64,000 bases of DNA from a virus (lineage: Duplodnaviria > Caudoviricetes), in IMG/VR virus record IMGVR_UViG_3300023119_000004. One strand, written 5' to 3'. Shown piece by piece: positions 17,598-50,826 of the stretch. A model generated the notes under the pieces. The model worked only from the letters and a program-made list of their open reading frames with translations. It did no database searches and was not told where the DNA came from. The translations under genes were made by a program, and so were the position numbers. Within the stretch, counting starts at the first letter, position 1. Each line of letters starts with the position of its first letter.

Positions 17598-17607
17598 GGA
17601 ATAGACA

Positions 17608-18547: not shown

Positions 18548-18898
18548 ATGGACGAACGATTAGAAAAAGCATTAGACTTTGCCAATTATATGACTACCCT
18601 AAATAACCAAAAAAGAGTAGCAAAAGAAAAGTTCTATGAAACAAACGTCTATTATTTTAATGGTGGACAATTTAGTGTAACAAAAGAACTACTAAACTTT
18701 TGTAATATGTTGGTACAGTCGGGTCAAGAAAACGTTGTGTTAATTGACGATAATGATATTCCTGTACGTATTGAAAAAATTGATGACTTTTATAGCGAAG
18801 CATTAGACATTTATTTTACAGCAACTAACGAATATCACACAGAATACGAAAAAATTAGAACTAACAGGAAAGTATCTGGACTTGTAGAGTATGAGTAA
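18548..18898 (+). CDS. Hypothetical protein (116 aa), first gene of the enzyme island
   Basis: ATG with AGGAG RBS; stop overlaps the next start. Confidence 0.6.
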   Translation: MDERLEKALDFANYMTTLNNQKRVAKEKFYETNVYYFNGGQFSVTKELLNFCNMLVQSGQENVVLIDDNDIPVRIEKIDDFYSEALDIYFTATNEYHTEYEKIRTNRKVSGLVEYE

Positions 18899-19736
18899 AG
18901 GAGCATTAATTTTTGCTAGAAACAATGCTCAAATAGATTACATCAAACAAGCACACTTTTTAGCAAAACGTATTAAAATATATTTAGGTATACCTACAAG
19001 TATTGTTACAGACAGTATTGAATACTTGCATTCGGCGTATCCTGATTACCAAGAAGTGTGGGATAAAGTAATTGAAGTGCCTTTTCAACAAGGTATTAGT
19101 AACAAAAGATATTATGACGGAAGTAATGTCTTTAAAAACTTAGAATTTAAAAACGACCTAAGAACACAAGCATACGATCTAACACCATATGACGAAACAT
19201 TAATGTTGGATAGCGATTATATTATTGCTAACGATTTATTTAAAGAGTGTTTTACATCAGACCACAATTTTCAAATATACAAAGATGCAAAAGATTTGTC
19301 AGGTTTTAGAGAAGTAGCAGAATTTAAAAATATTAGCGAAACAAGTGTTGACTTTTATTGGGCAACAGTAGTTTATTTTAAAAAGTGCAAAGAAGTAGAA
19401 ACATATTTTAACTTAACAAAGCATATTCAAGAAAATTGGCAACACTATAACAGTATATTTCAAATTAATAAAGGAACATTTCGCAACGATTGGGTGTTTA
19501 GTATTGCTATTCATATTATGAATGGTTATCAACATGGAGACTTTGCAACACCTCTGCCAGGAACAAAGTATTTTACTACTGATAGAGATATTCTATGGGA
19601 ACTTGATAAAGAAAACTTTTTGTTCTTAATCGAAAAGAAAGACCATTTAGGAGAATATACGCCTTTAAGGATTAAAGGTAGTAATGTACACGTTATGAAC
19701 AAGTTTAGTTTAACAAGGATTATTGATAATGAGTAA
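18891..19736 (+). CDS. GT-A fold (GT8-like) nucleotide-sugar transferase
   Basis: TPYDETLMLDSD (DxD) motif and WATVVYFKK. Clear paralogue of the next gene. Confidence 0.6.
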   Translation: MSKGALIFARNNAQIDYIKQAHFLAKRIKIYLGIPTSIVTDSIEYLHSAYPDYQEVWDKVIEVPFQQGISNKRYYDGSNVFKNLEFKNDLRTQAYDLTPYDETLMLDSDYIIANDLFKECFTSDHNFQIYKDAKDLSGFREVAEFKNISETSVDFYWATVVYFKKCKEVETYFNLTKHIQENWQHYNSIFQINKGTFRNDWVFSIAIHIMNGYQHGDFATPLPGTKYFTTDRDILWELDKENFLFLIEKKDHLGEYTPLRIKGSNVHVMNKFSLTRIIDNE

Positions 19737-20565
19737 AGGATTTGTATTCATTGCACAAAACAGTGAAGACGATTATGTAAAACAGGCTTGTTTGTTAGCA
19801 ATGAGTTTACACGCTACACAAAAAGATCCTAAAATTTGCCTAATTACCAATGACGAAGTTCCTGAAAAATATGTATCACTGTTTGATTGTATAAAAGAAA
19901 TCCCCTGGGAAGATAGTGCAATAGAAGCAGAGTGGAAAGTACAGAATAGATGGAAAATTTATCATGCTAGTCCGTATGATGAAACTATTGTAATGGACAC
20001 AGACATGGTTGTATTGCAAGATTTAGAAAGTTGGTGGAACTTTTTAAGTAATTATGACCTATATTTTGTAAGCAAGGTGTTTACTTATAGAGGAGATGAA
20101 GTAGTAGATAACTATTATCGTAAAACTTTTATTGCTAACGAACTGCCAAACTTATATGCAGGGTTTCATTACTTTAAAAAGAGTGATTTTGCAAAAGAAT
20201 TTTATACTTGGTTAGAACTAGTTATGAATAACTGGGAACTATTTTATGGAAAATATGCTAAAGAACTATATCAGAAATCACTATCAGTAGATTTAAGTGC
20301 GGCTATTGTTGCAAAGATACTAGACTGTGAAGAAAAAATTACTAATAAGAAAGCAACCATACCAAGTTTTACACACATGAAGCCTAGAATACAAGGTTGG
20401 TACAATCCAAGTGCTACTTGGCAAAGTAGAGTTGGTAGTTATCTAACAGATGACCTTAAATTAAAAATAGGAAATCATGCTCAAACAGGCATTTTTCATT
20501 ATACTGAAAAAACGTTTGCATCAAAAGATAAGATTTCAAAGTATGAAGGAGTGTTAAAACTATGA
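19729..20565 (+). CDS. GT-A fold (GT8-like) nucleotide-sugar transferase, paralogue
   Basis: SPYDETIVMDTD (DxD) and YAGFHYFKK. The ATG at 19729 (MSKG, as in the paralogue) is preferred over the TTG at 19723. Confidence 0.6.
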   Translation: MSKGFVFIAQNSEDDYVKQACLLAMSLHATQKDPKICLITNDEVPEKYVSLFDCIKEIPWEDSAIEAEWKVQNRWKIYHASPYDETIVMDTDMVVLQDLESWWNFLSNYDLYFVSKVFTYRGDEVVDNYYRKTFIANELPNLYAGFHYFKKSDFAKEFYTWLELVMNNWELFYGKYAKELYQKSLSVDLSAAIVAKILDCEEKITNKKATIPSFTHMKPRIQGWYNPSATWQSRVGSYLTDDLKLKIGNHAQTGIFHYTEKTFASKDKISKYEGVLKL

Positions 20566-21155
20566 TTACAATGAGACCTCCTGTTGTTATTGATAAAAGA
20601 TATGCTATCTTTAATCCTACAAATGGTGACTTGATTAGTGTTACTAATTCACAACCAAAAGAAGGAAGTTATATTCCAGTAGAAGAAAAAGAGGTATCTA
20701 GTATTGTTAATGGTACAGAACCAATGTCATATTATTATGTACATTATAACAAAACTAAAAAAGAATACCAGTTAAGAACTAGGAACAACTTTGATATTGA
20801 TAGTTACTATGTTGATGATCTTATATATGAAGTAAAAGAAGAACAAATTAAAGACGCAGATATACGTATTACTAAAAATGTAAAAGATACGTGTTGGAAA
20901 TTTAGTATTGGCGGAGATTTAAAAGCAAACATACTTGCTCAAAAAGTAAGTTTTAAACAAATTATGTTTTTTTCAATTACAAAGAAAAACGATCCAAACA
21001 TTTTGTACAAAACAATCTCTTTTAACTTTGAAGATTTAGTTGACGGTAAGTACATTGTATTGCCATTTGATAGTAAATTTGAATTTGATAACGAACCAAT
21101 TGGCATTTATACAATTAAAAGATTTGACAAGTATATGTACGAGGTAATTAAATGA
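20562..21155 (+). CDS. Hypothetical protein (197 aa)
   Basis: Coupled overlaps at both ends; no recognisable motif. Confidence 0.55.
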   Translation: MITMRPPVVIDKRYAIFNPTNGDLISVTNSQPKEGSYIPVEEKEVSSIVNGTEPMSYYYVHYNKTKKEYQLRTRNNFDIDSYYVDDLIYEVKEEQIKDADIRITKNVKDTCWKFSIGGDLKANILAQKVSFKQIMFFSITKKNDPNILYKTISFNFEDLVDGKYIVLPFDSKFEFDNEPIGIYTIKRFDKYMYEVIK

Positions 21156-22039
21156 AGATTAACATTGCAGAGCAAGATATTATATTCTTAAGTTACGATG
21201 AACCTAACTGCGAAAAGAATTATGTTGATTTATGCAAAAAAATTCCTTGGGCAAAACGTGTTCACGGAGTACACGGTTCAGATGCCGCACATAAAGCCTG
21301 TGCAGATTTGTCAGAAACAAAACACTTTGTAACAGTTGACGGAGATACTATTGTAGATCCGGAATTTTTAAATGTAGTTTTAGATTTAGACGTAATGGGC
21401 GTTGATGATGATTATCAATTTAGTTGGTGTGGACACATCGATGTTAACGGATTAAAATACGGCAACGGCAGTTTAAAAATGTGGACTAAAGAATTCGTTA
21501 AAAATATGAAAACACATGAAAACACCGACGGCAATGATGATACAAATATTGAATTTTGTTATTTTGACAACTATTACCAATTAAACGAAAACTATAGCAC
21601 TAGTATTATTAGTTCAACACCGCATCAAGCATGGAGAGCAGGATTCCGTGAAGGTGTTAAGATGAGTTTAAACAGAGGTGCAAGAGTTTCTGATCTTAGC
21701 AAAGACATTTGGTGGCAAAATTACCAAAGATTGTTAATTTGGATGAACGTTGGTGCAGATGTTACTAACGGAATTTGGTCAGTGTACGGTGCAAGGCAAG
21801 GATGTCATCTAGCATATTGTACAGATTGGGACATTTCACAAACTAGAGACTTTAAAATCTTAAATGAGATGTGGGAAAAAGAAAAAGATAAGGATGCTTG
21901 GGCATTAGATGAATCAATGGAAGAACTAGGAGCAAAATTAGGAGAAGCAGGACTGCCGATTAGTCCAAAACCTTTCGATGCTGGACAAAGTAAAATGTTT
22001 AAAGCAGTTTATGAAAACACTCCTAGAGTTATTAGATGA
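21152..22039 (+). CDS. GT-A fold (GT2-like) glycosyltransferase-like protein
   Basis: IIFLSYDEP..AKRVHGV..FVTVDGD (DxD). Paralogue of 28815..29498. Confidence 0.6.
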   Translation: MKINIAEQDIIFLSYDEPNCEKNYVDLCKKIPWAKRVHGVHGSDAAHKACADLSETKHFVTVDGDTIVDPEFLNVVLDLDVMGVDDDYQFSWCGHIDVNGLKYGNGSLKMWTKEFVKNMKTHENTDGNDDTNIEFCYFDNYYQLNENYSTSIISSTPHQAWRAGFREGVKMSLNRGARVSDLSKDIWWQNYQRLLIWMNVGADVTNGIWSVYGARQGCHLAYCTDWDISQTRDFKILNEMWEKEKDKDAWALDESMEELGAKLGEAGLPISPKPFDAGQSKMFKAVYENTPRVIR

Positions 22040-23403
22040 GCGAACTAGATAAAATTAAAGAAATAATGCCGATAGTAGAAGAGGAAACATCTCCTACTTT
22101 TTGTTTAGCAAAGTGGCATCATACTACTATCTATTTACAAACAGGTGAAACACATAGTTGTTATCATCCTGCTCCGCACCCTATACCATTAGAAGAATTA
22201 AAAGATAATCCAAGTGCATTGCATAACACTAAAGAGAAAAAAGAACAACGTAAGCAGATGTTATGTGGACAAAAGCCAGAAGGTTGTAACTATTGCTGGA
22301 AGATCGAAGCAATGGGCAAAGACTTTGTTAGTGATAGACATATCAAAACTACGAGTATCTATAGACCCGAAAGAATTACGGAAATAAAACAAAAAGGGGC
22401 GGATTTTAACATAAATCCGGAGTATATTGAGATTAACTTTAGTAATGAGTGTAATTTTAAATGCGGTTATTGCCATCCTAAGTTTAGCAGTAGATACTAT
22501 AATGAGATTAAAGAACACGGACCATATAAAATGTCAACAGCACATAGGCAAGACATTGACTGGTTTGAGTTATATGACAATGAAGAATCAAACCCCTATG
22601 TGAAAGCATGGTGGGATTGGTGGCCGGAAGTCTCCAAGACTCTTAATATTTTGAGAATTACGGGAGGTGAGCCTTTAATGCACAAGAGTACTTGGAGACT
22701 TTTCGACGAGTTGGAAGCAGATCCTAAGCCACATATTCAAATCGAAGTAAACAGCAATATGGGTGTTAAAACTAAACTAGTAGAAAAACTTGTAGAACGT
22801 ATTAACACACTAAAAGAAAAGAATTGTATTAAAAGTTTTAAACTTTATACAAGTATAGATACTTGGGGCGAACGTGCAGAATATACACGTACTGGTTTAG
22901 ATATTGAACTATGGGAAAAGAACTTAGATTACTATCTAACTAATACAAACTTTCCTGTAACATTTATGATTACATTTAATTTATTTGCTGTTACAAGTTT
23001 TAGTTTGCTATTATCAAAGATTTTAGAATGGCGTGTAAAATATAATAATGAAAATGCAACACAATGGCAACGTATTAGATTTGATACTCCACATTTAAAA
23101 GAACCTACAATCTTTGACATGAATATTTTACCTAAAGAAAAGTTTATGCCATATATGCAAGACCATTTAGATTTAATAGAGCGTTTTAAAGATGATAATG
23201 ACAACACAAAGTTTAGTAGTTTAGAATATGAAAAGTTTAGACGTGTTGTAGACTATATGGCAACTACTAATTATGAACCTGAAAAACTAGAACAAGCACG
23301 TAGAGATTTCTCACGTTGGTTTACAGAATACGATCGTAGACGCGGAACTAATCTTGTTAGTGTATTTCCAGAATTAGAGCAATTTTATAATGAGTACAAG
23401 TAA
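22036..23403 (+). CDS. Radical SAM protein with N-terminal twitch/SPASM domain
   Basis: N-terminal FCLAKW..HSCYH..GCNYC. SAM cluster motif NECNFKCGYC and ITGGEP. Confidence 0.85.
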   Translation: MSELDKIKEIMPIVEEETSPTFCLAKWHHTTIYLQTGETHSCYHPAPHPIPLEELKDNPSALHNTKEKKEQRKQMLCGQKPEGCNYCWKIEAMGKDFVSDRHIKTTSIYRPERITEIKQKGADFNINPEYIEINFSNECNFKCGYCHPKFSSRYYNEIKEHGPYKMSTAHRQDIDWFELYDNEESNPYVKAWWDWWPEVSKTLNILRITGGEPLMHKSTWRLFDELEADPKPHIQIEVNSNMGVKTKLVEKLVERINTLKEKNCIKSFKLYTSIDTWGERAEYTRTGLDIELWEKNLDYYLTNTNFPVTFMITFNLFAVTSFSLLLSKILEWRVKYNNENATQWQRIRFDTPHLKEPTIFDMNILPKEKFMPYMQDHLDLIERFKDDNDNTKFSSLEYEKFRRVVDYMATTNYEPEKLEQARRDFSRWFTEYDRRRGTNLVSVFPELEQFYNEYK

Positions 23404-24568
23404 AGATACATTTTGTATATTACCCTGGAGCCATATGTATGTCAATCCAGATGGCAATGTGTTACCTTGTTGTATTGGTAAGTGGGACAAACCTTTAGGA
23501 AATACTAAACATAATACTATTAAAGAAATTTGGAATAGCGAAGCATACAAAAAGTTACGTCTTGCATTACTAAATGGTGAACAACCAAACGAATGTTCGC
23601 AATGCTGGGCACATGAAGCAAGTGATGTTTGGAGTTTTAGAAAAGAAAATAATAAAAAGTTTTCTAAGCATTTAGGTGTGCGTGAACTAACTAATCAAGA
23701 CGGCAGTTTAGACGTAATGAAATTACTTTACTTTGATGTACGCTGGAGTAATATTTGTAATTTTAAATGTAGAACGTGTAGTGCAACATACAGTTCAAGT
23801 TGGGCAATAGAAGATAATGCGAACGGAAAGAACGTTCCTGTATATACATTTGCAGGAGGAGATTCTAATGACAGTTTGTTTGAACAGTTTAAGCCATATT
23901 TAAAAGATATTGAAGATTTTTATTTTGCAGGTGGCGAACCGTTAGTAACAGATAAGCATTACGAAATTTTAGATTATTTAATTGCTGAAAATAAAACAGA
24001 TGCAATATTACAATACAATACTAATTTAAGTAACCTAACTTATAAAGGTAAACTTGTAACAGATTACTGGAAACAATTTAAAAAAGTACAAGTAAGAGCA
24101 AGTTTAGATCATTATGGTTCTAAAGCAGAATACATTAGAGAAGGAACTGACTGGAATAAGATTATTGAGAATCTTAATTTTATTAAAAAAGAATGTCCTC
24201 ACGTAATTATGAGTTTTAATGCAGTAGTAAGTGCATTTAATATTGTTACACTTGTAGACTTTTTAGAATATATGACAGATAATGGATTTGACGTAAACAG
24301 TTGTACTTTATATAATCTTGTTGATCCTGTACATTATAGTGTTTCAGCAGTACCAACAGAAAAACTACAACACGCAAAACAACGTTTAGAAGAATATTAC
24401 AATAAAATAACTAATAGAGAACACAAAGAAACTATTAATAGTGTGTTAAAGTATATTAGCAATGTAGAATATAATCCAGACCATAATGCTATATGGGCAA
24501 ACAAAAATTCTTACTACGATCAAATACGTAAAAGAAGTTTTGCTGAAACTTTTCCTGAATTATTATAA
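23390..24568 (+). CDS. Radical SAM protein with N-terminal twitch/SPASM domain
   Basis: FCILPW..VLPCC..ECSQC. NICNFKCRTC and FAGGEP. Confidence 0.85.
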   Translation: MSTSKDTFCILPWSHMYVNPDGNVLPCCIGKWDKPLGNTKHNTIKEIWNSEAYKKLRLALLNGEQPNECSQCWAHEASDVWSFRKENNKKFSKHLGVRELTNQDGSLDVMKLLYFDVRWSNICNFKCRTCSATYSSSWAIEDNANGKNVPVYTFAGGDSNDSLFEQFKPYLKDIEDFYFAGGEPLVTDKHYEILDYLIAENKTDAILQYNTNLSNLTYKGKLVTDYWKQFKKVQVRASLDHYGSKAEYIREGTDWNKIIENLNFIKKECPHVIMSFNAVVSAFNIVTLVDFLEYMTDNGFDVNSCTLYNLVDPVHYSVSAVPTEKLQHAKQRLEEYYNKITNREHKETINSVLKYISNVEYNPDHNAIWANKNSYYDQIRKRSFAETFPELL

Positions 24569-25438
24569 ATGCAAGATTGGTTCTAATTGATCTGATTGAC
24601 GCAATCTAAGTTCATAGTTACAACTATCAACAAATCTTTGTCCTGAACTGTAAATATGAAACTTTGGAACACCTTTACTTGCACCGTTCATCATTGTAAC
24701 CCACTTTTTAAAACTTTCGGCTACTGCGGCATCGGTTTCGTCACGCCAGTTATGTTTAAAAACTGCTTTGAGATAATTGTAATATTCAACTATATGAGGA
24801 TGACCGTCTTGAAAATCTTTGTTTACAGTTTTTCTATCTTGTTTAAATTTCTTTTGAATATCGTTGTTCCAAAGAACTTCGTAAAAACTAGGCTGTATAG
24901 TTTCAAGAACTGGTCTGTAGATGTCTGCTAGTTTTTTAATTTTATCATGATGTTGTGTGCGTCTGTTTAAGTTCCATTGATCGGTGTAGTCAACAATTTT
25001 CATCATTTGCAAGAAATGAAATTGTGTTTTATGTTTTAGATGTTCGTTTGCCGCATAGATGAATGCAAAATCTCTAACGTAAGCACCATACTCACTAAAC
25101 CAAGTTTGCACCCACTTTTCGTCATACTCGCCTTGTGTGTAAATGTTACCCGGCACAAGCCAACCGTCACGTTGAGGAAGATATCTATCCTCTCTACAAA
25201 CATTAGTCCATTGTACAATAACTAGGTCTTCGTGTGTAAAATTATATACAGCATCTGCCTGCATTAGCGAATTAAAAATATAATGATTACCTGCACCCGA
25301 ACGACCAAAGTTTCTAAACTCAGCCTCAGGAAATTCTGCTCCGATAACATTTGCCCAAGTACCCCAAATATATGAAGTAAAACTACAACCAAATGTAAAG
25401 ATTCTTTTTGGTTTATTATGAATTAATTGTTTTGCCAT
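24563..25438 (-). CDS. SGNH-hydrolase-like protein
   Basis: IFTFGCSFT (block I variant), FGRSGAGN, C-terminal DGHP. Confidence 0.55.
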   Translation of the reverse strand: MAKQLIHNKPKRIFTFGCSFTSYIWGTWANVIGAEFPEAEFRNFGRSGAGNHYIFNSLMQADAVYNFTHEDLVIVQWTNVCREDRYLPQRDGWLVPGNIYTQGEYDEKWVQTWFSEYGAYVRDFAFIYAANEHLKHKTQFHFLQMMKIVDYTDQWNLNRRTQHHDKIKKLADIYRPVLETIQPSFYEVLWNNDIQKKFKQDRKTVNKDFQDGHPHIVEYYNYLKAVFKHNWRDETDAAVAESFKKWVTMMNGASKGVPKFHIYSSGQRFVDSCNYELRLRQSDQLEPILHL

Positions 25439-26684
25439 CTGCTGTATCTCTCATGTATTTACACAAATCAAAAAATTGTGCTCTTGTATGTTTACCTGCT
25501 AACATTGTTTTAAAATTATTTAACAGTTTATCACTTTCTGCATATTTCCATTTGACTTGTTCTTCCCAAGTCATATTTCTTAATTGAAGGACTACTCTTT
25601 CTAGTTCTGCATAAATCTTTTTCCAGCGTTTATAATCGTCTGGTTCGTCATCAAAACTATAATCAAAGCAGTCAAAAAGTTGATAGCCGTACTCTTGCAA
25701 CTTTTTGTTTGCACCTTGTTGCCCCCAAATAATAAATGGTTGCATATGAAACATTGATCTAAATGTTTTTTCACTCCAAAACTGACTAGTACCTTGCCAG
25801 TTTTCAGCAAACGTTTCGTTAACTATTTGAAATAACGTTTGATCGTGTAAGTGTGTATTAAGGAACATAGCATGGTTTGTAATAAAATCTTCTGTGTCTG
25901 CAACTAAAGGTAATACAGTTTTATTCCAGCGTCTTAAGTGTTTAGGTTCAATACCGTGGTCGCCTGGAATTTGACTAACATAACCATCCCAACTAAAATA
26001 TTTAGAATTAAAGTTTCCGTGACTTATAAGGCCGTCAAACAAGTAGTCACCGTGAAATATCTCCCAAGCAGACAATGTTCTATGTGGTCTATTAACTCTA
26101 CTTAAACTTAAGAATAGTTTATTCTTAAATTTTGACTTGGTTCCTTTTTTACTTGCTTTTAATCTTTTGTTTGCTTGTTCATTAATATCACCGTGTTGGT
26201 CCACAATAAGATTTGCACCTTGCACACCAAACAACATAGATTCAAAATTGTTAAAGCACATTAGTTTAATGCTTCTAGTAATTCCGTGTTCTTGATTGTA
26301 TCTTTTTAAATTATCATGATCTAGCATATTACTAGAAATATAAATTACTCTTTCGGGATCAACACCGTGTTCTTTACAATTAAAATACAGTACATCAAAA
26401 AATGGTTGATCGTAAATTGTGCTAAAGCCCTCGGTACTTGCATCAAAGATAAAAAATGTTTTCTTATCCTTTTTCAGTTGACGTAGATGAGATAAACGCA
26501 TTTGTCTAAAAATTGGTGCAGTTTTTGGCCATCTAGGATATTTAATCAATCCTTGATAAATGGTAATGTCCTTGTGTACAATACCACTTTTGTTAAATTC
26601 TTCTTTTAAAAACTCATAGGTTAGAGTGTTTTGCGGACACGATAAAAAATCGTTATGTTGAAAAAAGCCAATGATGCGATTCAT
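25416..26684 (-). CDS. Hypothetical protein, possibly GT-B-type glycosyltransferase-like
   Basis: Long ORF with C-terminal IVNETF..FWSEKTFRSMFHMQPFIIWG pattern; neighbours ugd and GTs. The ATG at 26684 is preferred over the TTG at 26699. Confidence 0.45.
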   Translation of the reverse strand: MNRIIGFFQHNDFLSCPQNTLTYEFLKEEFNKSGIVHKDITIYQGLIKYPRWPKTAPIFRQMRLSHLRQLKKDKKTFFIFDASTEGFSTIYDQPFFDVLYFNCKEHGVDPERVIYISSNMLDHDNLKRYNQEHGITRSIKLMCFNNFESMLFGVQGANLIVDQHGDINEQANKRLKASKKGTKSKFKNKLFLSLSRVNRPHRTLSAWEIFHGDYLFDGLISHGNFNSKYFSWDGYVSQIPGDHGIEPKHLRRWNKTVLPLVADTEDFITNHAMFLNTHLHDQTLFQIVNETFAENWQGTSQFWSEKTFRSMFHMQPFIIWGQQGANKKLQEYGYQLFDCFDYSFDDEPDDYKRWKKIYAELERVVLQLRNMTWEEQVKWKYAESDKLLNNFKTMLAGKHTRAQFFDLCKYMRDTADGKTINS

Positions 26685-26698
26685 GTTTCTGGGTTCCA

Positions 26699-26730
26699 AT
26701 AAATACTATGTATTTATATGCGTACTTAAT
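26699..26730. promoter_or_regulatory. Bidirectional late promoter: perfect inverted repeat ATAAATAC-TAT-GTATTTAT
   Basis: 26699-26717 gives TAAATA on both strands between divergent genes. An additional TAAGTA lies on the minus strand (GTACTTAAT 26722-30). Confidence 0.65.
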
Positions 26731-26744
26731 TAACGGAGAATAGT

Positions 26745-42523: not shown

Positions 42524-42542
42524 ATTGTTTTGACAGACCCTT

Positions 42543-42567
42543 CTGTTCTGATAAGTATATTTAACAG
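42543..42567. promoter_or_regulatory. Putative bidirectional late promoter between divergent blocks
   Basis: ATAAGTA (+, 42551-57) abuts TATTTA (minus-strand TAAATA, 42558-63), flanked by CTGTT/AACAG. Confidence 0.5.
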
Positions 42568-42591
42568 ATACTTTAATTCAAATGAGGAAAC

Positions 42592-43290
42592 ATGACTGAA
42601 CTTCAAACACTTTTTGAACAACATAAAGACCCAATTAGTGTACAATACCCTGAACAATTTGATCCTAAATGGGTAATAATGGAAAGTGGTTGGCCTTGCT
42701 TTAGGCTAAGTGCGTTAGATAACCAGCCATGGAAAGAAATGCATAAAGAAGCAGAAGCACTTACAGATAAGTTTTTTTCGCATAGAGAAGATACATATGG
42801 TAAAGGTTGGAAAAGTTTAACAATACACGGACTTAATGATGATACACAAAGTCTTGACACTTACGGTGAGCGTAGTGAAATTATTAAAGAACTAAATTGG
42901 ACATACGTAGCAGATAAGTGTCCTGTAACTAAAAAGTTTTTAACAGATGTTTGGCCTGCAGAATACTTAAACCGTGTACGTTTTATGTTGCTCGAACCCG
43001 GCGGATATATTTTACCACATCAAGATAGGCCAGATACAGAAAAACGTTTAAGTGTTTGTAATATTAGTTTGAATAATCCAGAAGGTTGTAAGTTTATTTT
43101 TAAAGACAAAGGCATTGTACCGTTTGAAGATAATGGTAGTGCATTTTTAATGGATATTTCAAATGTTCATAGTGTTTGGAACAATAGTGATAAGCCTCGC
43201 ATTCATATGATTATACATTATGAGTTGGGTAGACGTATTAGAGATTTTTTCTACGTGCTAAGACAAAGTTACTATACTAATAGAGGGTAA
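42592..43290 (+). CDS. Asp/Asn beta-hydroxylase-like 2OG-Fe(II) oxygenase
   Basis: RVRFM..PGGYILPHQD, distal NVHSVWN..PRIHMI. Close paralogue of 34878..35519 (GKGWKSLTIHG versus GKGWRSLTLHG). Confidence 0.8.
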   Translation: MTELQTLFEQHKDPISVQYPEQFDPKWVIMESGWPCFRLSALDNQPWKEMHKEAEALTDKFFSHREDTYGKGWKSLTIHGLNDDTQSLDTYGERSEIIKELNWTYVADKCPVTKKFLTDVWPAEYLNRVRFMLLEPGGYILPHQDRPDTEKRLSVCNISLNNPEGCKFIFKDKGIVPFEDNGSAFLMDISNVHSVWNNSDKPRIHMIIHYELGRRIRDFFYVLRQSYYTNRG

Positions 43291-43291
43291 C

Positions 43292-44761
43292 ATGAAAGAC
43301 TGGAATAGCATTACAGTAGACAGATACTACGAGAATCTAAACATTGATAACAAAGTTGCAATTGGTATTTTAGATATTTCAAGAGATATACCTAATAAAT
43401 TTTTACAAAAACGTACATTTGACATGACATACTTTTATATTAATCGTATGTTAAAGATGGGTATCTGTAATTATGTAGGATTCCATAATAAAGTAGAAAC
43501 AATACTTGAAGAAGCATTAGCAAAAGGAAAAGATTATGCTATGATTGCTTGTCAAGGGTTACTTTTATATCGAGGTCCAAGTTTAGTGCAGAAAAGTGTA
43601 GAATATGCTGAAAAGAATCCGCAGTTTTTTGTAATAGGGCATATTATGGATAAGAAAAAGCAACACTATCTTACAACAGGTGCTTATCCAGGACTACATA
43701 GACAGTATTTGTTTGTTAACATTGCTAAGTGGGTTGAACTAGGCAAACCAGCATTTGATGAAATAGGTGTATACTGGGATCGTAAGCCAACATTACAAAA
43801 TTATGAACTAAGTGAAGAAACAATTCATAGCAATTACACGCCAGCCTGGATTAAAACAGGTAACGGAGAGTCAAAATATGCTACAACAGCAGACGGAAGT
43901 AACTGGATTGATCTAGCATTACGCAATAACATTACCATAGACAACTTAGATAATGATATGCGTGACTGTAAAGTATTTTTATATCCATACATAGAGTCGG
44001 ATAAACTTGCAGAAGCGTGGGTAGATAAAACTAAAGACGAAGGACTTAATCAAAGTCAAGCCGCTTGGATAAGAAAACTAGCATATCAAGAAGATATTGA
44101 AAAAGATAGGGTATATGCTTTTAACACAGAAACACTTTCAGGTGAAGGTGTGCGTACAAACGGAAAGTATATTGATCATTTCTTTACTGCGGCCGCAGGC
44201 TTTAAGCCTCTTGCTATATTAAATGCCAACGGATTCCATAGGGGCACTACTGTACATTACTTTGATTGGTGTGAAGCAAGTTTAAACTATAAAAAGCACT
44301 TACTTGAAACGTGGGATGGCTATGATTTAGATAAATGGTTATTAGAACACGACTTAGAATATAACTTTAGTTCAACATATAGAGGAAACTACAAGCAATT
44401 CTGGGAACAAGAAATGAAAGAACACGGTGGCAGTTTAGCATTCCAGCGTTTATGGTCACGTTATAAAGAACTAAAACACGAGTTCCATCTTGTTGATATT
44501 GTTAACGAGCCAAACCTATTATTTGACCAAATAAATAATGTACATGGTACAAAAGTATTGTGGACTACAAATATATGGTCCAGCGAAATGTTACATTGGA
44601 ACGTTGAACCAGAGCAATTAGAAGAAAAGTGGAAAGTATTTAGACAACTCATACCTGATGACCTAGTGTTATACGGTCATGATTACATTGGAGTTGATCT
44701 ATATGAAAGTGTAAGAAATGGAAACGCAACAACACACCCAAGATTTCAAACGATATATTGA
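43292..44761 (+). CDS. Hypothetical two-domain protein (489 aa), C-terminal half possibly a SAM-binding fold
   Basis: Long intact ORF with FFTAAAGF..VHYFDW pattern; no secure family assignment. Confidence 0.45.
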   Translation: MKDWNSITVDRYYENLNIDNKVAIGILDISRDIPNKFLQKRTFDMTYFYINRMLKMGICNYVGFHNKVETILEEALAKGKDYAMIACQGLLLYRGPSLVQKSVEYAEKNPQFFVIGHIMDKKKQHYLTTGAYPGLHRQYLFVNIAKWVELGKPAFDEIGVYWDRKPTLQNYELSEETIHSNYTPAWIKTGNGESKYATTADGSNWIDLALRNNITIDNLDNDMRDCKVFLYPYIESDKLAEAWVDKTKDEGLNQSQAAWIRKLAYQEDIEKDRVYAFNTETLSGEGVRTNGKYIDHFFTAAAGFKPLAILNANGFHRGTTVHYFDWCEASLNYKKHLLETWDGYDLDKWLLEHDLEYNFSSTYRGNYKQFWEQEMKEHGGSLAFQRLWSRYKELKHEFHLVDIVNEPNLLFDQINNVHGTKVLWTTNIWSSEMLHWNVEPEQLEEKWKVFRQLIPDDLVLYGHDYIGVDLYESVRNGNATTHPRFQTIY

Positions 44762-45386
44762 AACTTGTGAACCTTTAGACTTAGGATTCAAAGTTAAAAA
44801 ATTGTTTGAAGTAGATGTAGAAAAAATACAAGAGTGGTATAAAACTCTTGAAGAAAATTATTCTGATTGGAAGTTTGTTATTGGTGAAAATCATCACGTA
44901 TGGAAGTTTCCTATTGTAGATCCTGAAGCAAAGACAGGACATTACTTGCCAGATGATGCGGCATACTATACACTTTGTTGGAACAGTGATGAACCTGGAC
45001 CTAAACCATTTGAACAAGGATGTGCTAAAGAGGAATATCGTGACAACGATAATGATGAATTAAATCCTCGTAAATGTTTTACAGGATACGGATTAGAACT
45101 TGTAAAGCAATTACCTTTTAAAAGTAAAAAGTGGTTGGTAACAATACATACCCCAGGAACAAAATTAATTACACATCAAGATCAACCTGACAAATTGCGT
45201 GTACATATTCCAATTCATACTAATGAAGATAGTAATTGGATTATTGGAGGCGAAGAATTTCATATGGAACCGGGTTGGGCATATCTTGTCAACACAACTA
45301 TTCCGCATAGTGTAGAAAACAAAGGTAGTACAAACAGAATACACTTGTACGGAAAGGTATGGACTGAAGATGTTAGTAGAATATAG
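44718..45386 (+). CDS. Asp/Asn beta-hydroxylase-like 2OG-Fe(II) oxygenase
   Basis: PGTKLITHQD..RVHIPI, distal IPHSVEN..RIHL. Confidence 0.8.
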   Translation: METQQHTQDFKRYIETCEPLDLGFKVKKLFEVDVEKIQEWYKTLEENYSDWKFVIGENHHVWKFPIVDPEAKTGHYLPDDAAYYTLCWNSDEPGPKPFEQGCAKEEYRDNDNDELNPRKCFTGYGLELVKQLPFKSKKWLVTIHTPGTKLITHQDQPDKLRVHIPIHTNEDSNWIIGGEEFHMEPGWAYLVNTTIPHSVENKGSTNRIHLYGKVWTEDVSRI

Positions 45387-45837
45387 ATCAAAAGAAAGTT
45401 TTATTACCTATGCAAAGTTTAATGACATAGACGACACAACTGTTGATAATAAAAAAGATTTCTTTATTTGTATTGAGCCGTCAGGCGGCCCACATTGTGA
45501 TCCGTATTTTAAAAGACAACATTCAAACGTTATAACATTAAAGTTTGACGATGTTCCCGAGGACACTCGAAAGTGGGGCGGCGACTTTGATATGTGGTTT
45601 GAAGCAAAAGCAATGCGTGGATACCAGGCAGACGAATTAGTAAAATTTATAAAAACTATTCCTGAAGATGCTAATGTTCATGTTTATTGTATAAAAGGAC
45701 AAGTAAGAAGTAAAGCAGTTGCAGACTTTATAAAAGAAACTTTGTTAAATACTGATGAACAAAAGCCTACACCAGGCGCAGTTAATTCTTATTACTATGT
45801 AAAAGAAATGCTAAGGACAACATGGACAGATACATAA
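45370..45837 (+). CDS. PTP/DSP-like cysteine phosphatase
   Basis: VHVYCIKGQVRSKAVA is a CX5R(S) P-loop; upstream FDD acid loop. Confidence 0.6.
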   Translation: MLVEYRSKESFITYAKFNDIDDTTVDNKKDFFICIEPSGGPHCDPYFKRQHSNVITLKFDDVPEDTRKWGGDFDMWFEAKAMRGYQADELVKFIKTIPEDANVHVYCIKGQVRSKAVADFIKETLLNTDEQKPTPGAVNSYYYVKEMLRTTWTDT

Positions 45838-46562
45838 CAGATTACAACCCAGAAGATTTTACACCAGAATTTCTTAATAGTTATGACTGGGATATTATTG
45901 AGTTTAAAGCAACTATTGATATTTCGTTGCTTGAAGATTATTATGATGTACTAAAAACTGATCTAGCACATTTAGAATTTCACTTTGGATTAAAAGAATA
46001 CATTAAAAAAGAAATTTTTGAAATGTGGACTGAAACAAATAGGGTAGGAAACTACGAAGGCAACGTTAGCGGTTGGGGAATATCTTGGCCTGCCGAACGT
46101 AACATTCCTTGTGCAGGAAAACGTCATGTTAATCCTATACATTATCCTGAATTAGAAAAATACGATTTAGATGCCGACGGTGATGGGTTTTATGCTGATT
46201 CTAAAATTATGAGTGTATATAAATTTGGTATAGTAAACAAGATGATTAAAGAGTGGGGCGAACCAGCACTAAGACAGTTACTAGCAATTAAGCATCCACC
46301 AGGCACCCGTGTGCATAATCATCATGATGGATCATATAAGAAGTTGCATATTCCAATGCACTCAAATGATCAAGCACTATTCTGTTTTGGTGAAAACGAC
46401 GAGCGTAAGTATGTAATGAAGCCAGGCAAAATATATATGATTAATCCTATAGTAAATCATAGCACAATTAACAACGGAACCACCGAACGAGTGCATTTTT
46501 TAACTAGAATCGACCCAGAATATGTTACCACCTTCGCTGGGATTACCACGCATATTAAATAA
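45822..46562 (+). CDS. Asp/Asn beta-hydroxylase-like 2OG-Fe(II) oxygenase
   Basis: PPGTRVHNHHD..KLHIPM, distal VNHSTIN..RVHF. Confidence 0.75.
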   Translation: MDRYITDYNPEDFTPEFLNSYDWDIIEFKATIDISLLEDYYDVLKTDLAHLEFHFGLKEYIKKEIFEMWTETNRVGNYEGNVSGWGISWPAERNIPCAGKRHVNPIHYPELEKYDLDADGDGFYADSKIMSVYKFGIVNKMIKEWGEPALRQLLAIKHPPGTRVHNHHDGSYKKLHIPMHSNDQALFCFGENDERKYVMKPGKIYMINPIVNHSTINNGTTERVHFLTRIDPEYVTTFAGITTHIK

Positions 46563-46565
46563 ATA
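46556..46565 (+). promoter_or_regulatory. T4-like late promoter motif (TAAATAAATA)
   Basis: Tandem TAAATA at the stop of the preceding gene, upstream of the GGAG RBS and the ATG at 46589. Confidence 0.55.
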
Positions 46566-46588
46566 TAGTATAGAGTATGGAGAAAAAT

Positions 46589-47830
46589 ATGTCAAATGTT
46601 TATTATACAAACGTGCTTGACGACCCTTATTACATTGGAAATGGCACATTTTTGTCAGTAGTTACTAACGGTAAGGTCAGAGTTGAGGGCGAAACCGATA
46701 GAGATTACAACAAAGATGCAGGTGCTAAAGCCGGTCTTTTAAAGATTAACACTGATAACGAAACTGTAAAGTTTATTGATTTTAGTGAGCAAAGTGAAGA
46801 CGGTGACAGATATCGTGCTGTTGCTGTAGTAGGCAAGTATGCTTATGTAATGCGTACACAAAAGAAACACGTAGATAGTATTGTGCGTATGGCTAAAGTT
46901 GACCTTGATACTGACACAGTTGAAATGATTCAAGATAAAGCAATTACTATTCATGGTGTTGAAACACCTAAAACATTCTGCGGTCACTTTAACTTTGGTA
47001 GACCTGTAGTTGTTGGTAAAAAAATTATTTACCCACCATTAAACAGTGGTGTTGTAATCATTTATGATACAGAATCAGAAAAAATGATTGCACGTGATGT
47101 TGCTGACGAAACAGCATCTGTACATTGTACATATATTGAAAAGACTAACGAAGTAGCATTTTTCCCATACGGTAATCCAACAGACCAATTGTTAGTTCTT
47201 TCATTAGACGATTACTCTACTAAATTAGTTACTGCTCCAGTTAAAGGTGCATTCTACGGTGCTATTAGTCGCAACGATAAAATTGTAGGCTTACCATTAG
47301 TAATGGGCGAAACTAAAGAATTACATTTTTGGATTTATGATGGCAATGAAATTACTTCAGTACCTTACGTACTTGAAGATTCAGAAAGTGAAGTTGGACA
47401 ACTTGGTTTCAAGAATGGGGTTATTGTTGACAACAGATTAATTGCACATAGTTCTTGGGAAAAGTGTCAAGAACTAATTGATCTAAATTTAGATACACTA
47501 GAAATTAAAAGAACTAGAACAGATAGATCATTAGGGTCTATGCCTGTTGTAGGTGATAGCATTATGTTAATGCCTTCAGTACAGCATCCATCAATGTCTA
47601 ACATTGCACCAGGTGCAGTATTTGATGTTAACGATTCTGGTGTTACAGAAAGTTTCAATCTAAAAACTAATAACATTTATGTAGGTGTTGCTTCTAAAGA
47701 AACAAATAAAGCAGTAACAGTTCCATTTAGATTTGATTTAGTTGACAATGTTCTTAAGTCAGAGATGTTATTTGTTGATCTGAAAAACAAGGAATCTAAG
47801 CAGATTGCATTTGAGTTAGAAATGGAATAA
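46589..47830 (+). CDS. Beta-propeller-like repeat protein, third distant member
   Basis: YPPL, FPYG and LPLV repeats, FGRPVVVG (compare FGRPVIY in 38699..39835). ATG 46589 has a GGAG RBS; the ORF track starts at 46577. Confidence 0.5.
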   Translation: MSNVYYTNVLDDPYYIGNGTFLSVVTNGKVRVEGETDRDYNKDAGAKAGLLKINTDNETVKFIDFSEQSEDGDRYRAVAVVGKYAYVMRTQKKHVDSIVRMAKVDLDTDTVEMIQDKAITIHGVETPKTFCGHFNFGRPVVVGKKIIYPPLNSGVVIIYDTESEKMIARDVADETASVHCTYIEKTNEVAFFPYGNPTDQLLVLSLDDYSTKLVTAPVKGAFYGAISRNDKIVGLPLVMGETKELHFWIYDGNEITSVPYVLEDSESEVGQLGFKNGVIVDNRLIAHSSWEKCQELIDLNLDTLEIKRTRTDRSLGSMPVVGDSIMLMPSVQHPSMSNIAPGAVFDVNDSGVTESFNLKTNNIYVGVASKETNKAVTVPFRFDLVDNVLKSEMLFVDLKNKESKQIAFELEME

Positions 47831-48423
47831 TGCCTGAGAACTTTGAAGTCATTGAATTAGATAACTTCAAGTTTTCGTTGGAAGAATTAGAACATTACTA
47901 TCATACAGTTCAATCAAATTTCAGTTACTTGAAGTGGGCGCCTGACGCTGATACAGACACTAAAGATCATAATGTTAGTGAAGTGTACGGTTGGGCAATC
48001 CAAAGTAATTTAAAAGATCCAAAGAAACCCTGTTCCCCATACGATATTTCTAAAGGTGATGATGTTGTAGGAACGTTTGATGTTCCAACAGAATTAATAT
48101 TTGGATTTGCAGAAAAGTTTTTAAAGGCATTGCCTTTTGTAAGACAAACCGTTATTACTGCTCACCCGCCTGAAACTAAGATAAATTTACATAGTGACAA
48201 TGAAGAATTTTACAAGATTCATATGCCAATAACAGCAAACAATGAATCTATGTTTAATTTTGAAGGTAAAGAATATAATTTGCAACCAGGTAAAGCATAC
48301 TTGATTAATACAGAAAAATTACACGGTACATTTAATAAAGGTGAAACAACTCGTGTACATTTCATTACAAAGTTACGTATTGAAGATATGAATAAAGTGG
48401 TTAACAATGAGTACACAATATAA
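47830..48423 (+). CDS. Asp/Asn beta-hydroxylase-like 2OG-Fe(II) oxygenase
   Basis: PPETKINLHSD..KIHMPI, distal KLHGTFN..RVHF. Confidence 0.8.
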   Translation: MPENFEVIELDNFKFSLEELEHYYHTVQSNFSYLKWAPDADTDTKDHNVSEVYGWAIQSNLKDPKKPCSPYDISKGDDVVGTFDVPTELIFGFAEKFLKALPFVRQTVITAHPPETKINLHSDNEEFYKIHMPITANNESMFNFEGKEYNLQPGKAYLINTEKLHGTFNKGETTRVHFITKLRIEDMNKVVNNEYTI

Positions 48424-49633
48424 AAAAATATGTATCATAGGAGGCGGAACAACTGGTTGGTGGACCGCAGGATACTTAGAAAATAAATTTCCAGACATTG
48501 AAATTACACTAATCGAAAGCAGTGATATTCCTATCATTGGAGTAGGTGAAAGTACATTGCCTATGATAAAATCATTCTTTGAAAGTTTCGGAATGGATGA
48601 AAAAGAATGGATGCCTAAGTGTGATGCTGTACATAAGTTTGGTAATATAAAACAAGGTTGGGATAAACCAGACGGTGAAGAATTTGCATTTACATTTTGG
48701 TACAACGATAATGATGCATTTAATACTTGGTACAAAGAGTTTGAACAAGGTAAAGTAGATAAGCATAGTATTAATGATCTATATGATCGCGATGCTTGGA
48801 GAGCAGTAGCATATCATTTACACGCAGAAGAAGCCGGGCGTATTGTTAAAGATAATTGTAAACGTGTAAAGCACGAAATTGCAACACTAGATACATTACC
48901 AGAAGGTTATGACTTGTATATTGATTGTACAGGACTTCGTAGACAATTTGTTAAAGACAAAACACTTGCAGATTTATCTGAGCATCATCTAGTTAATAGT
49001 GCTTGGGTTTGTCCGTTTGAACTTGACGAAATGGTTCCGTATACTAGAACAATCGCTAGAGATTACGGATGGCAATTTAAAATTGGACTAACAAGTAGAA
49101 CAGGTACAGGATACTGTTTTGCAGATCAATATGTTGACGATGATACAGCATTAGAACAATTTAAAGAATATACTAAAGAACTAACACCCTGGCAAGACAA
49201 AGAGCCGAGACTAATTAAATGGCAACCTGGGTGGTTAGAAAATGCTTGGCAAGACAACGTAGTTGCTATAGGCATGAGTCAAGGATTTATTGATCCGTTA
49301 GAATCAAATGCATTGTTTATGATACAGCATGGTATTACTACTCTTGCTAATTGCATTGAAAGAGGTTACGGTGCTAGAGCATATAACAAAATGGTTAAAC
49401 GTACCTGGAAAGAAAACAGTGATTATATTCTTCATCATTACGGTTTAAGTTCACGTAACGATACAGAGTTTTGGAAGCATTATTCTAAACTAGACTTTTC
49501 TAAAACTTTATGGGAACACTATGCTAAGACTGGAAACAAATACACTAATTTGTATCCTGATGCTATCTGGGCAACACTTGGCTTATACTACGAAAACTTT
49601 ACTTACTATCAAAATAAGCAGAACGCTGTTTAA
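48407..49633 (+). CDS. Flavin-dependent (tryptophan-halogenase family) enzyme, shortened variant
   Basis: IIGGGTTGW FAD motif, IGVGESTLP, WMPKCDAVHK (catalytic Lys position), IDCTG, FIDPLES. The WxWxIP motif appears as WQFKIG. Confidence 0.8.
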   Translation: MSTQYKKICIIGGGTTGWWTAGYLENKFPDIEITLIESSDIPIIGVGESTLPMIKSFFESFGMDEKEWMPKCDAVHKFGNIKQGWDKPDGEEFAFTFWYNDNDAFNTWYKEFEQGKVDKHSINDLYDRDAWRAVAYHLHAEEAGRIVKDNCKRVKHEIATLDTLPEGYDLYIDCTGLRRQFVKDKTLADLSEHHLVNSAWVCPFELDEMVPYTRTIARDYGWQFKIGLTSRTGTGYCFADQYVDDDTALEQFKEYTKELTPWQDKEPRLIKWQPGWLENAWQDNVVAIGMSQGFIDPLESNALFMIQHGITTLANCIERGYGARAYNKMVKRTWKENSDYILHHYGLSSRNDTEFWKHYSKLDFSKTLWEHYAKTGNKYTNLYPDAIWATLGLYYENFTYYQNKQNAV

Positions 49634-50186
49634 AATATTCTTCAACATTTACCCTATACAAGTTTTGTTTTGTAAAGTATAGGTCTATATTTTCATATTC
49701 TAAACTTAATAATTTACGTTTGATTAATAACGGAGTCATCATACTAGTAAGTTTATGACTGCTAGGTGCATCGTTATTTTTATCTATGTTTGTGCTTATG
49801 TAAAGTTTTGCTTGTGGGTCTTGTTTTAATATATCGTTAATTTGTGCTTCTAATAAGTAAGTCCAGTGAACAACACTAGCATATACATCTTTACTAAAAG
49901 TATTAGGATTGTATCCTGGGAGTTGAGCACCGCGGAATAACACACGATACGAGTGTTCGTCTATGTTTAATTTATGATATCCTGCAATAGAATAAATTTT
50001 ACTTTCGTCTAATGCCGCAAACCAAGTAGCAGTATCCCACTTCATTCTTTCTAAAGACTTATTATTTTGTAATCCTAATTTGTTACATTCTTCACAAAAA
50101 TCTTTTACAGAAAAGACATCTACTTCAGAAAGTTTTACTATTCTTCTAGTATCGTTATTAAAAATTGTTCTTCCAAGTTCTTCCAT
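49599..50186 (-). CDS. Hypothetical protein, possible GNAT-like acyltransferase
   Basis: Size and beta pattern (IYSIAGYH..YRVLFRG) only loosely resemble GNAT; adjacent to the adenylating enzyme. Confidence 0.35.
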   Translation of the reverse strand: MEELGRTIFNNDTRRIVKLSEVDVFSVKDFCEECNKLGLQNNKSLERMKWDTATWFAALDESKIYSIAGYHKLNIDEHSYRVLFRGAQLPGYNPNTFSKDVYASVVHWTYLLEAQINDILKQDPQAKLYISTNIDKNNDAPSSHKLTSMMTPLLIKRKLLSLEYENIDLYFTKQNLYRVNVEEYFKQRSAYFDSK

Positions 50187-50826
50187 TAGGCTCTTCTATG
50201 CGTGAGTGAAATTCCATTGTTTCAATATTAAATACATCTCCTGTTGCTCTACCGTTAATATGGCATTGACATAATTTGCCATCAGGAGTTACAGGCATAA
50301 ACATTACATGATCGTCTTTTATTGTGTTTAGATCAAATGATGTACTATTATACCCAATCATTACAGGTGGCGGAAATTCTGTCATACCATACCAATTTGC
50401 TACAGTTTGGACACCACGTTCTTTAAATGCATCTATAAAACTTTGTTCTATTTTGGAACTACCAGTAACCATATAACGGACACAACTCATATCCAACTCT
50501 TTAAAGCCTTTGGTCTTTTGTAACAGTTCTAAATGGCGTGGTATTAAACTAATATACGTCGGTTTAACGCGGTTAAACAGTTCAGGGTAGGTATAGGCAT
50601 TAAAGTTACTAGAAACGTGCTGTGCGCCGCTTAAAAACGCAGGAACGGCGGTGATTGTGTAGTGGGCAATAGTGTTTGCTGGAAACACATCTAATACTCT
50701 ATCGTGTTTGGTTAAACCAATTTCTTTTATACTTTTGGTTGCACATTCTTTTATGTATTCCCAAGAATGGACAACTTCTTTTGGTTGCTCTGTAGAGCCT
50801 GATGTATAGAGTGTAAGTGTGCTCAT
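50158..50826 (-). CDS. Minimal ANL-superfamily (AMP-binding) adenylating enzyme core (222 aa)
   Basis: LYTSGSTEQPK (A3), NWYGMTE (A5) and ATGDV (A7). Both termini are truncated relative to typical ~500-aa members. Confidence 0.75.
   Translation of the reverse strand: MSTLTLYTSGSTEQPKEVVHSWEYIKECATKSIKEIGLTKHDRVLDVFPANTIAHYTITAVPAFLSGAQHVSSNFNAYTYPELFNRVKPTYISLIPRHLELLQKTKGFKELDMSCVRYMVTGSSKIEQSFIDAFKERGVQTVANWYGMTEFPPPVMIGYNSTSFDLNTIKDDHVMFMPVTPDGKLCQCHINGRATGDVFNIETMEFHSRIEEPNGRTWKNNF

Follow-up and report, generated by a model that had tools for sequence, protein, structure and literature searches.

A hypervariable, radical SAM-rich island in the tail-fibre module of marine jumbo phages, with a possible role in glycan tailoring

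Pelagimyophages and cyanomyophages carry a 'host recognition cluster' (HRC), a sizeable island without synteny that is flanked by gp14 and by the gene for the giant baseplate protein VrlC and contains fibres, GT8 and other glycosyltransferases (GTs), UDP-glucose 6-dehydrogenase and radical S-adenosylmethionine (SAM) cassettes (Zaragoza-Solas et al. 2020, PMC7029224). The function of the HRC was guessed to be related to lipopolysaccharide (LPS), and AspH is a core gene of the pelagimyophages (PMC7029224). Here we describe an island of comparable make-up at positions 18548-50826 of a stretch of 64,000 nucleotides, referred to from this point on as the window, from a virus of the Caudoviricetes (IMG/VR record IMGVR_UViG_3300023119_000004). 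We read it as a hypervariable, soluble glycan-building and glycan-tailoring island, with a sugar- or glycan-tailoring core, at a fixed locus in the tail-fibre module, and give this reading a probability of about one half; that virion proteins are the acceptor of the glycan is a more tentative suggestion.

Like the HRCs, the island is a hypervariable part of the structural module, beside a giant baseplate or virion protein and fibres, and holds GT8, Ugd-family, radical SAM and AspH-like or other 2-oxoglutarate (2OG) oxygenase genes. It differs in that the phage is a jumbo phage of the Rak2/Atu_ph07/PA5oct type rather than T4-like, and in that the conserved core of the island rests on an expansion of paralogues in the radical SAM family NF033640 (up to at least 10 per genome) and includes a cassette common to Bdellovibrionota; these are the features that are new. 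Because the host phage is not T4-like, the HRC is an analogue in layout and gene content and not the same lineage. An initial annotation, made from the sequence alone, had called the island undescribed. That description is overstated, since HRCs (PMC7029224) are fibre-adjacent islands that carry genes for GTs, Ugd, AspH and radical SAM proteins, and the radical SAM family has an NCBIfam model; by analogy with the HRC class the island is not wholly undescribed. The kind of feature is known. Precedents for virus-encoded virion glycosylation are cited in PMC12619734; in mycobacteriophages Che8, Corndog and Myrna (Freeman et al. 2023) and in chlorovirus PBCV-1 (A064R), soluble viral GTs are encoded beside structural genes, as here. 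Such systems comprise a few GTs and lack an expansion of radical SAM or 2OG oxygenase genes.

Within 18548-50826 we count 38 tightly packed open reading frames (ORFs), close to the 37 or so consecutive genes first noted, and nearly all of them abut or overlap, the largest gaps being 45 and 68 nt. The clustering of the radical SAM and AspH-like genes is non-random, because every such match in the 97.9-kb IMG/VR virus record that contains the window (8 of 8 radical SAM and 5 of 5 PF05118) falls inside this interval. The island and its flanks are arranged as follows; genes are called by position number, with (-) for the minus strand.

3-11189, open at the window start: giant ORF upstream of the island, 4928 aa when read on into the full record
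11210-18498, plus strand: left flank as a whole, with phrog_11259 and tail-fibre PHROGs
11210-11824, plus strand: baseplate/structural protein, 44-54% identical to Phosso, Atu_ph07, CBB and Rak2-like proteins
11828-17198, plus strand: three fibre-like proteins (tail-fibre PHROGs)
17205-18498, plus strand: small Ser/Thr/Asn-rich proteins
18548-22039, plus strand: conserved left block, with small protein 18548, GT8-like 18891 and 19723, unassigned 20562 and GT-A protein 21152 (DxD)
22036-24568, plus strand: two tandem N-terminal-twitch radical SAM enzymes, 22036 and 23390 (NF033640; scores of 322 and 371 bits, cut-off 170)
24563-26699, minus strand: SGNH-like protein 24563 (motifs GCS...DGHPH) and a conserved 427-aa protein; homologues in 8 relatives
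26745-28822, plus strand: Ugd-family dehydrogenase 26745 (PF03721/PF00984) and SGNH-like 27914 (GDSN...DNCH)
28806-33633, plus strand: core cassette, with GT-A protein 28806, radical SAM 29470, methyltransferase 30758, radical SAM-SPASM protein 31353 and N-terminal-twitch radical SAM 32302
inside 28806-33633, plus strand: small, poorly conserved transmembrane (TM) protein 30447
33624-34887, plus strand: two ORFs with no family match and no homologue in the relatives examined
34878-37603, plus strand: AspH-like 34878, proline-hydroxylase-like 35506, radical SAM 36159 and short-chain dehydrogenase/reductase (SDR)-like 37055
37584-42523, minus strand: operon of N-terminal-twitch radical SAM 37584, propeller-like 38699 and 39828, APH-type kinase-like 41047 and N-terminal-twitch radical SAM 41489
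42592-44761, plus strand: AspH-like 42592 and conserved 489-aa two-domain protein 43292
44718-50826, mixed strands: variable right end, with AspH-like 44718, 45822 and 47830, CX5R protein 45370, 46577, halogenase 48407, 49599(-) and AMP-binding 50158(-)
50871-52238, minus strand: right flank, a Ser/Thr/Asn/Gly-rich protein with an Mtd_N domain (PF18454), putative receptor-binding or fibre protein

Relatives show the same locus. Baseplate proteins 75-94% identical to that of the window occur on more than 590 IMG/VR stretches, and enzymes 44-81% identical to 32302 on about 70 contigs. Of 80 relatives anchored on the baseplate gene, 41-49 have the conserved left block directly behind the fibre genes, a number that the 10-kb flank restricts, and G007 and G009 have it there as well. 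The core cassette is syntenic in about 60 IMG/VR relatives, and around 32302 most sufficiently long contigs keep the order 28806, 29470, 31353/30758, 32302, 35506 and 36159, sometimes with 37055 and 37584, and then 38699, 39828, 41047, 41489, 42592 and 43292; the minus-strand operon is conserved in 23-31 relatives. Other cassettes come and go, and the variable right end has few or no homologues in relatives anchored on the radical SAM gene. All five long contigs chosen by their baseplate gene carry an N-terminal-twitch radical SAM gene just downstream, in 1 to at least 10 copies. The left flank is the same in G007 and G009 (giant protein, baseplate protein, three fibres, 17608 in two copies, 18548, two GT8 genes and the GT-A gene, with a 20562 homologue in addition in G009), as is the right flank (the Mtd_N gene with the block that follows it), and the right boundary recurs in contigs L034 and L037. 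Between flanks that are the same in the three genomes, the island spans 32 kb here, against 37.5 kb in G007 and 56 kb in G009, and most of its content differs; constant flanks with varying content are a pattern as in glycan loci. The genes therefore co-occur as a unit at a fixed, fibre-linked locus, as the initial annotation had supposed, and independent scattering in relatives was not seen. Its further proposal of one pathway is not supported by the comparison: a conserved core is joined by swappable cassettes, some of which look unrelated, and content differs greatly between the 32-, 37.5- and 56-kb versions. The island is one locus with a coherent glycan-tailoring core, but probably not one pathway.

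Two other observations concern these relatives. HemC (porphobilinogen deaminase) lies within the island of 15 of them and a class-III aminotransferase, possibly HemL-like, within that of 8 (L059:3198-4034, L043:3091-4212 and related loci); both are tetrapyrrole-type auxiliary genes amid radical SAM genes. Long runs of radical SAM paralogues (GC 27-36%) also occur on L212-L217, Tara-type contigs of metagenome-assembled genomes (MAGs) labelled Gammaproteobacteria, Rickettsiales, Acidimicrobiaceae, Chloroflexota and Verrucomicrobiales, which look like phage contigs mis-binned into MAGs.

Family models confirm the eight SPASM/twitch radical SAM proteins first claimed (PF04055): 22036, 23390, 29470, 31353, 32302, 36159, 37584(-) and 41489(-). 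Membership was defined as a score over the gathering score together with CxxxCxxC, and in the genome search all eight pass, 22036 (31.2 bits) only when neighbouring in-frame stretches are counted. Five of the eight (22036, 23390, 32302, 37584(-) and 41489(-)) are full-length members of NF033640, N_Twi_rSAM, at 218-423 bits, the cut-off being 170 bits over a full-length model that places an N-terminal Cys-rich twitch region ahead of the core; 29470, 31353 and 36159 fall below every NCBIfam cut-off. Four of the radical SAM proteins have their Pfam SPASM domain (residues 3-94) before the core, an order explained by membership of NF033640, the 'twitch domain-containing radical SAM protein' family. 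Where the N-terminal twitch domain is absent, the core begins at residues 13-31. In the N_Twi alignment CxxxCxxC is invariant and the N-terminal Cys cluster conserved. NF033640 was defined computationally, without a known substrate, and the five island members show the Cys cluster followed by CxxxCxxC. Like them, BtrN and BlsE, which act on sugars, and SkfB and anSME, which act on peptides, combine a radical SAM core with an auxiliary Fe-S cluster domain; that domain is C-terminal in the four named enzymes but N-terminal in the island, the resemblance does not extend beyond the core, and scores stay below all membership cut-offs. Small sugars or nucleotides are the substrates of BtrN-, BlsE- and viperin-type enzymes. 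The island enzymes would act on sugars. Thousands of metagenomic homologues of the radical SAM protein exist. A tblastn search of phages with an N_Twi enzyme found only 7 distant records, whose annotation was uninformative, and a literature search found nothing relevant on an N-terminal twitch or on a SPASM/polysaccharide combination.

Glycan chemistry is the best-supported theme of the island because of its GT-A and GT8 proteins, its Ugd-family enzyme, the nucleotide-sugar enzymes of relatives and the GT2 neighbours of the cassette in bacteria. The product of 19723 matches glycogenin/GT8 (E 8e-6), and 18891 is its paralogue (hhalign probability 99.7%). The predicted model of 28806 (pLDDT, the predicted local distance difference test, 88.5) finds GT-A matches at a Foldseek probability of 1.0 and TM of about 0.4; its DxD motif (D60, D62) is invariant and 21152 is its paralogue, so that a GT-A glycosyltransferase fold, as predicted, is well supported for both. 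The four to five GT-like proteins reported at the outset thus correspond to four clear GT-A proteins (18891, 19723, 21152 and 28806) and a weak candidate, 43292, among whose weak fold matches is the GT domain of PBCV-1 A064R. The Ugd-family (UDP-glucose/GDP-mannose dehydrogenase) protein 26745 likewise stands, through its two Pfam matches, and relatives' islands add two more proteins of this family, a NAD epimerase/dehydratase, a MobA-like NTP_transf_3 protein, a HAD phosphatase, an Aminotran_3 protein and an SDR.

Six AspH-like oxygenases had been claimed. Five are PF05118 proteins (34878, 42592, 44718, 45822 and 47830; 31-55 bits against a cut-off of 22.6) with an intact HxD...H...RxH motif, the pattern expected of an iron triad and a 2OG-binding Arg, in which H143, D145, H193 and R203 are invariant; the sixth 2OG/Fe(II) oxygenase, 35506, is instead proline-hydroxylase-like. 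A tblastn search of phages with 42592 gave no match. The predicted halogenase, 48407, belongs to the Trp-halogenase (flavin halogenase) family (E 1e-73) and has relatives in other contigs and in cyano- and pelagimyophages. In HTVC008M, four 2OG oxygenases lie behind the fibre genes, and a 2OG oxygenase and a Trp halogenase lie between the terminase subunits; 48407 shows 28-32% identity to such halogenases. The adenylating enzyme is found as an AMP-binding family match, 50158(-), but only as a 222-aa fragment (profile positions 168-330 of 384); to judge from its sequence, 49599-50826(-) may be a split or rearranged adenylating enzyme. Homologues of 50158(-) and of ORF 49599(-) occur in the distant contigs L066 and L076, where the gene order is reversed. 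The other enzymes on the original list are present only as weak matches or motifs: methyltransferase 30758 (E 0.003), SDR-like 37055 (YxxxK), kinase-like 41047(-) (APH motif HGDxxxxN...DWD), CX5R phosphatase candidate 45370 (CIKGQVRS) and the two SGNH-like proteins, the motif of 27914 being invariant.

Among the non-enzymatic genes, 38699(-) and 39828(-) are mutual paralogues with propeller-like features and no enzymatic signature; two of three claimed propellers are thereby supported, and the third is not among them. Protein Atlas look-ups returned only unnamed viral clusters or generic propeller families, no PDB sequence was matched in profile searches with 28806, 43292, 38699, 18891, 27914 or 25416, and the conserved 427-aa protein has no Pfam or PDB match. 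A hydropathy scan finds one small TM-like protein in the window and, across the islands of relatives, 6 of 1010 ORFs with at least two TM-like segments, all six of at most 265 aa and none large and polytopic. By this hydropathy measure, about 70 phage islands contain no initiating phosphoglycosyltransferase, flippase, polymerase, exporter or ligase, and they do not resemble loci for O-antigen or capsule assembly. Nor does the island resemble a cluster for ribosomally synthesised and post-translationally modified peptides (RiPPs), as no Pfam scan of its proteins returned a PqqD or RiPP recognition element (RRE) family. No precursor peptide gene was found in it, and its intergenic gaps of at most 68 nt agree with the first observation that there is no room for one; also as first observed, no non-ribosomal peptide synthetase or polyketide synthase was found in it. 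The fibre proteins have no collagen-like GXY repeats that would account for a prolyl 4-hydroxylase (P4H)-like enzyme, and no Cys-rich repeat substrate or leader peptide was found, the fibre proteins containing 0-2 Cys.

Among cellular sequences, the nearest homologues of 32302 (about 50% identity) are found on Mb-sized chromosomes of Bdellovibrionota. Alongside the 32302 homologue, the bacterial cassette comprises a 28806-like GT-A protein, 29470-like and 31353-like radical SAM proteins and a 30758-like methyltransferase, the genes being 33-50% identical to the phage families, and at least three of these four partners are present in 36 of the 63 bacterial loci of at least 12 kb. The genome scan used an alignment of closer paralogues, a nine-sequence alignment being too diverse. 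GT2-like genes (BLAST) occur in 27 of 77 bacterial loci. To illustrate, the cassette of Bdellovibrio sp. HCB2-146 (L170) lies among six GT2 genes, a methyltransferase and a DUF2142 membrane protein, and this GT2/radical SAM locus is adjoined by a 1355-aa protein (L170:17239-21306(-)) with a C-terminal Peptidase_S74 intramolecular chaperone, which is phage-tail-fibre-like; the same is seen in L194. Whereas the bacterial cassettes are short and stand alone, sometimes within GT2-rich loci, that of the phages forms part of an island of 32-56 kb that also carries oxygenase, propeller and GT8 genes.

Ten gene starts, most of them at operon heads, have TAAATA 17-58 nt upstream, among them those of the structural genes 11210, 15711 and 52238(-), against an estimated chance expectation of about 1.5 genes; the motif is thus common to island blocks and structural genes, as the initial annotation had it. 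TAAATA may be a late promoter and the island a late-expressed region. The T4 late-promoter consensus TATAAATA is depleted, with 1 copy in 64 kb against 11.2 expected, and this lone TATAAATA lies in the divergent intergenic region 26700-26744, 12 nt upstream of the minus-strand gene ending at 26699. Four salt-marsh metatranscriptome runs yielded contigs that are 100% identical to the island sequence. Such data, being contigs only, carry no timing or strand and give no reliable levels, but their summed depth varies about 100-fold over 20 kb, a signal which fits RNA better than contaminating DNA. In three runs contigs start at 46582, just past TAAATA at 46556-46565. Summed depth is 150-600 in the four runs over 54800-56400 (the MoxR/CobS-like ATPase 55268-56389 and the end of its neighbour), 13-58 over the Mtd_N operon and 1-20 over the island; part of the depth over 54800-56400 may come from related phages.

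As judged from its sequences, the phage is an uncultured marine relative of the Rak2/Atu_ph07/PA5oct jumbo myoviruses, because its baseplate protein, a domain of its giant ORF and its ATPase resemble those of such phages: the C-terminal third of the giant ORF contains a domain of about 340 aa common to virion structural proteins of PA5oct-like and Rak2-like jumbo phages, and the ATPase is 50% identical to that of PA5oct. From the completeness of 27% that CheckV estimates for the 97.9-kb record, the genome would measure roughly 350 kb; the same radical SAM protein is encoded on contigs as long as 312 kb. GC content is about 33%. A megablast search of cultured phages with the island and flank gave no match. 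The window differs from the record at nine single bases (3614, 3767, 5243, 20548, 20828, 23014, 23028, 54056 and 56388). The Mtd_N gene is the first gene of a conserved minus-strand block, with replication or ATPase genes further downstream. A diversity-generating retroelement was considered because of this gene and set aside, as the 97.9-kb record, itself only part of the genome, has no reverse transcriptase (PF00078).

Under the glycan-tailoring reading, activated sugars would be made by Ugd and the APH-type kinase, helped in relatives by the additional nucleotidyltransferase, epimerase/dehydratase, aminotransferase and HAD phosphatase. They would then be tailored by radical chemistry, hydroxylation, methylation and acyl or ester changes, through the eight radical SAM enzymes (five with an N-terminal twitch), the six 2OG oxygenases, the methyltransferase and the SGNH-like proteins. 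Finally, the GT8-like and GT-A glycosyltransferases would transfer the sugars onto a cytoplasmic acceptor; a cytoplasmic one is expected because the phage islands lack membrane machinery. The likeliest acceptor would be the neighbouring fibre or baseplate proteins, glycosylated prior to assembly: the fixed position in the fibre module and the TAAATA motif shared with structural genes favour virion proteins, which we nevertheless hold to be a tentative identification. The recurrence of the core cassette on Bdellovibrionota chromosomes, often beside GT2 genes, fibre linkage, the lack of any RRE or precursor match, the RNA-library contigs over the island and the precedents for virion glycosylation count in favour of the overall reading. 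Several results weigh on the other side. SPASM/twitch enzymes and AspH/P4H-type oxygenases classically work on peptides and proteins, the nearest solved structure to an island radical SAM enzyme is that of the peptide-modifying SkfB (E 1e-6, core only), and the island enzymes have no characterised close relative. Many island ORFs are unassigned; 43292 has weak GT-A/nucleotidyltransferase and methyltransferase-like fold matches from a poor model (pLDDT 69); and HemC, the halogenase and the adenylation fragment do not fit a single glycan pathway. The idea that the bacterial cassette generally lies beside S74-type fibre genes had to be dropped, since a fibre neighbour is present in only 2 of 77 loci.

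The same enzymes might act on other targets. Bacterial GT8 enzymes commonly act on the LPS core, and LpxO, a PF05118 member, hydroxylates lipid A, so that nucleotide sugars or glycans might enter the LPS or capsule pathway of the host, with superinfection exclusion or the prevention of progeny re-adsorption as the outcome. Such envelope remodelling is how GT8, Ugd and other 'LPS-related' HRC genes are read in PMC7029224, and the cassette of Bdellovibrio L170 adjoins a DUF2142 membrane protein; we consider it unlikely here, as no initiating phosphoglycosyltransferase, flippase, polymerase or ligase is found in about 70 phage islands and the locus is tied to fibre genes and not to early or host-takeover genes. 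Direct tailoring of proteins, in which radical SAM and AspH/P4H-like enzymes would cross-link, epimerise and hydroxylate fibre or propeller proteins, with glycosylation secondary or absent, draws on the fact that SPASM/twitch families mostly mature peptides and proteins. Weak NCBIfam matches of the island enzymes are indeed mostly to RiPP maturases, SkfB is their nearest structure, six protein-hydroxylase-like oxygenases keep intact triads, and two conserved propeller proteins without enzymatic signature sit inside a radical SAM operon. Nevertheless, there is no RRE/PqqD protein, leader peptide or Cys-rich repeat substrate, fibre proteins have 0-2 Cys, and the radical SAM enzymes consistently co-occur with GTs and nucleotide-sugar enzymes in phages and bacteria, which makes this explanation improbable.

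Another improbable account, to which we give no more weight, dispenses with a common target: the island would be a hyperplastic region of unrelated auxiliary genes, and fibre adjacency would mark a permissive insertion site. Content is strongly variable between relatives, unrelated cassettes occur (HemC, aminotransferase, and halogenase plus adenylation fragment), and such regions are known in T4-like marine phages; against this, about 15 core genes stay in the same order over about 60 contigs, a 4-5 gene cassette travels together in Bdellovibrionota, and the radical SAM and AspH genes of the record are all confined to the locus. That the island makes a small molecule or cofactor that diffuses, for instance a halogenated metabolite, a modified nucleoside or an aminoglycoside-like glycoside, is very unlikely. 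BtrN, BlsE and viperin set precedents of that type, a weak BlsE match (37584(-)) and weak viperin matches were obtained, and the island has halogenase, kinase and phosphatase genes as well as an adenylating fragment, but no exporter or self-resistance gene was seen in it, and it has four to five GTs and is linked to the structural module. Phage GTs, kinases, radical SAM enzymes and dioxygenases also act in known DNA hypermodification, e.g. of thymidine. That the island glycosylates or otherwise decorates phage bases is nonetheless the faintest of these prospects, given that Pfam scans found no hydroxymethylase, TET/JBP or DNA methyltransferase signature in it and that the same cassette is present on Bdellovibrionota chromosomes.

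Returning to the glycan-tailoring reading, we tentatively suggest that the island could be the O-antigen-like locus of a virus particle, producing radical-SAM-driven, rapidly diversifying, unusual glycans on tail-fibre or baseplate proteins, with a core cassette common to the predatory Bdellovibrionota, which must attach to prey too. If true, this would provide the first function for NF033640 and a new class of virion modification. The phage family is represented by hundreds of contigs in marine metagenomes and devotes 32-56 kb to the island locus, and cultured Bdellovibrio with the cassette offer a tractable system. Knowledge of the product would explain the 2OG oxygenase, radical SAM and GT genes long noted in the structural modules of marine phages, and would show whether phages diversify their surface glycans as bacteria do their O-antigens.

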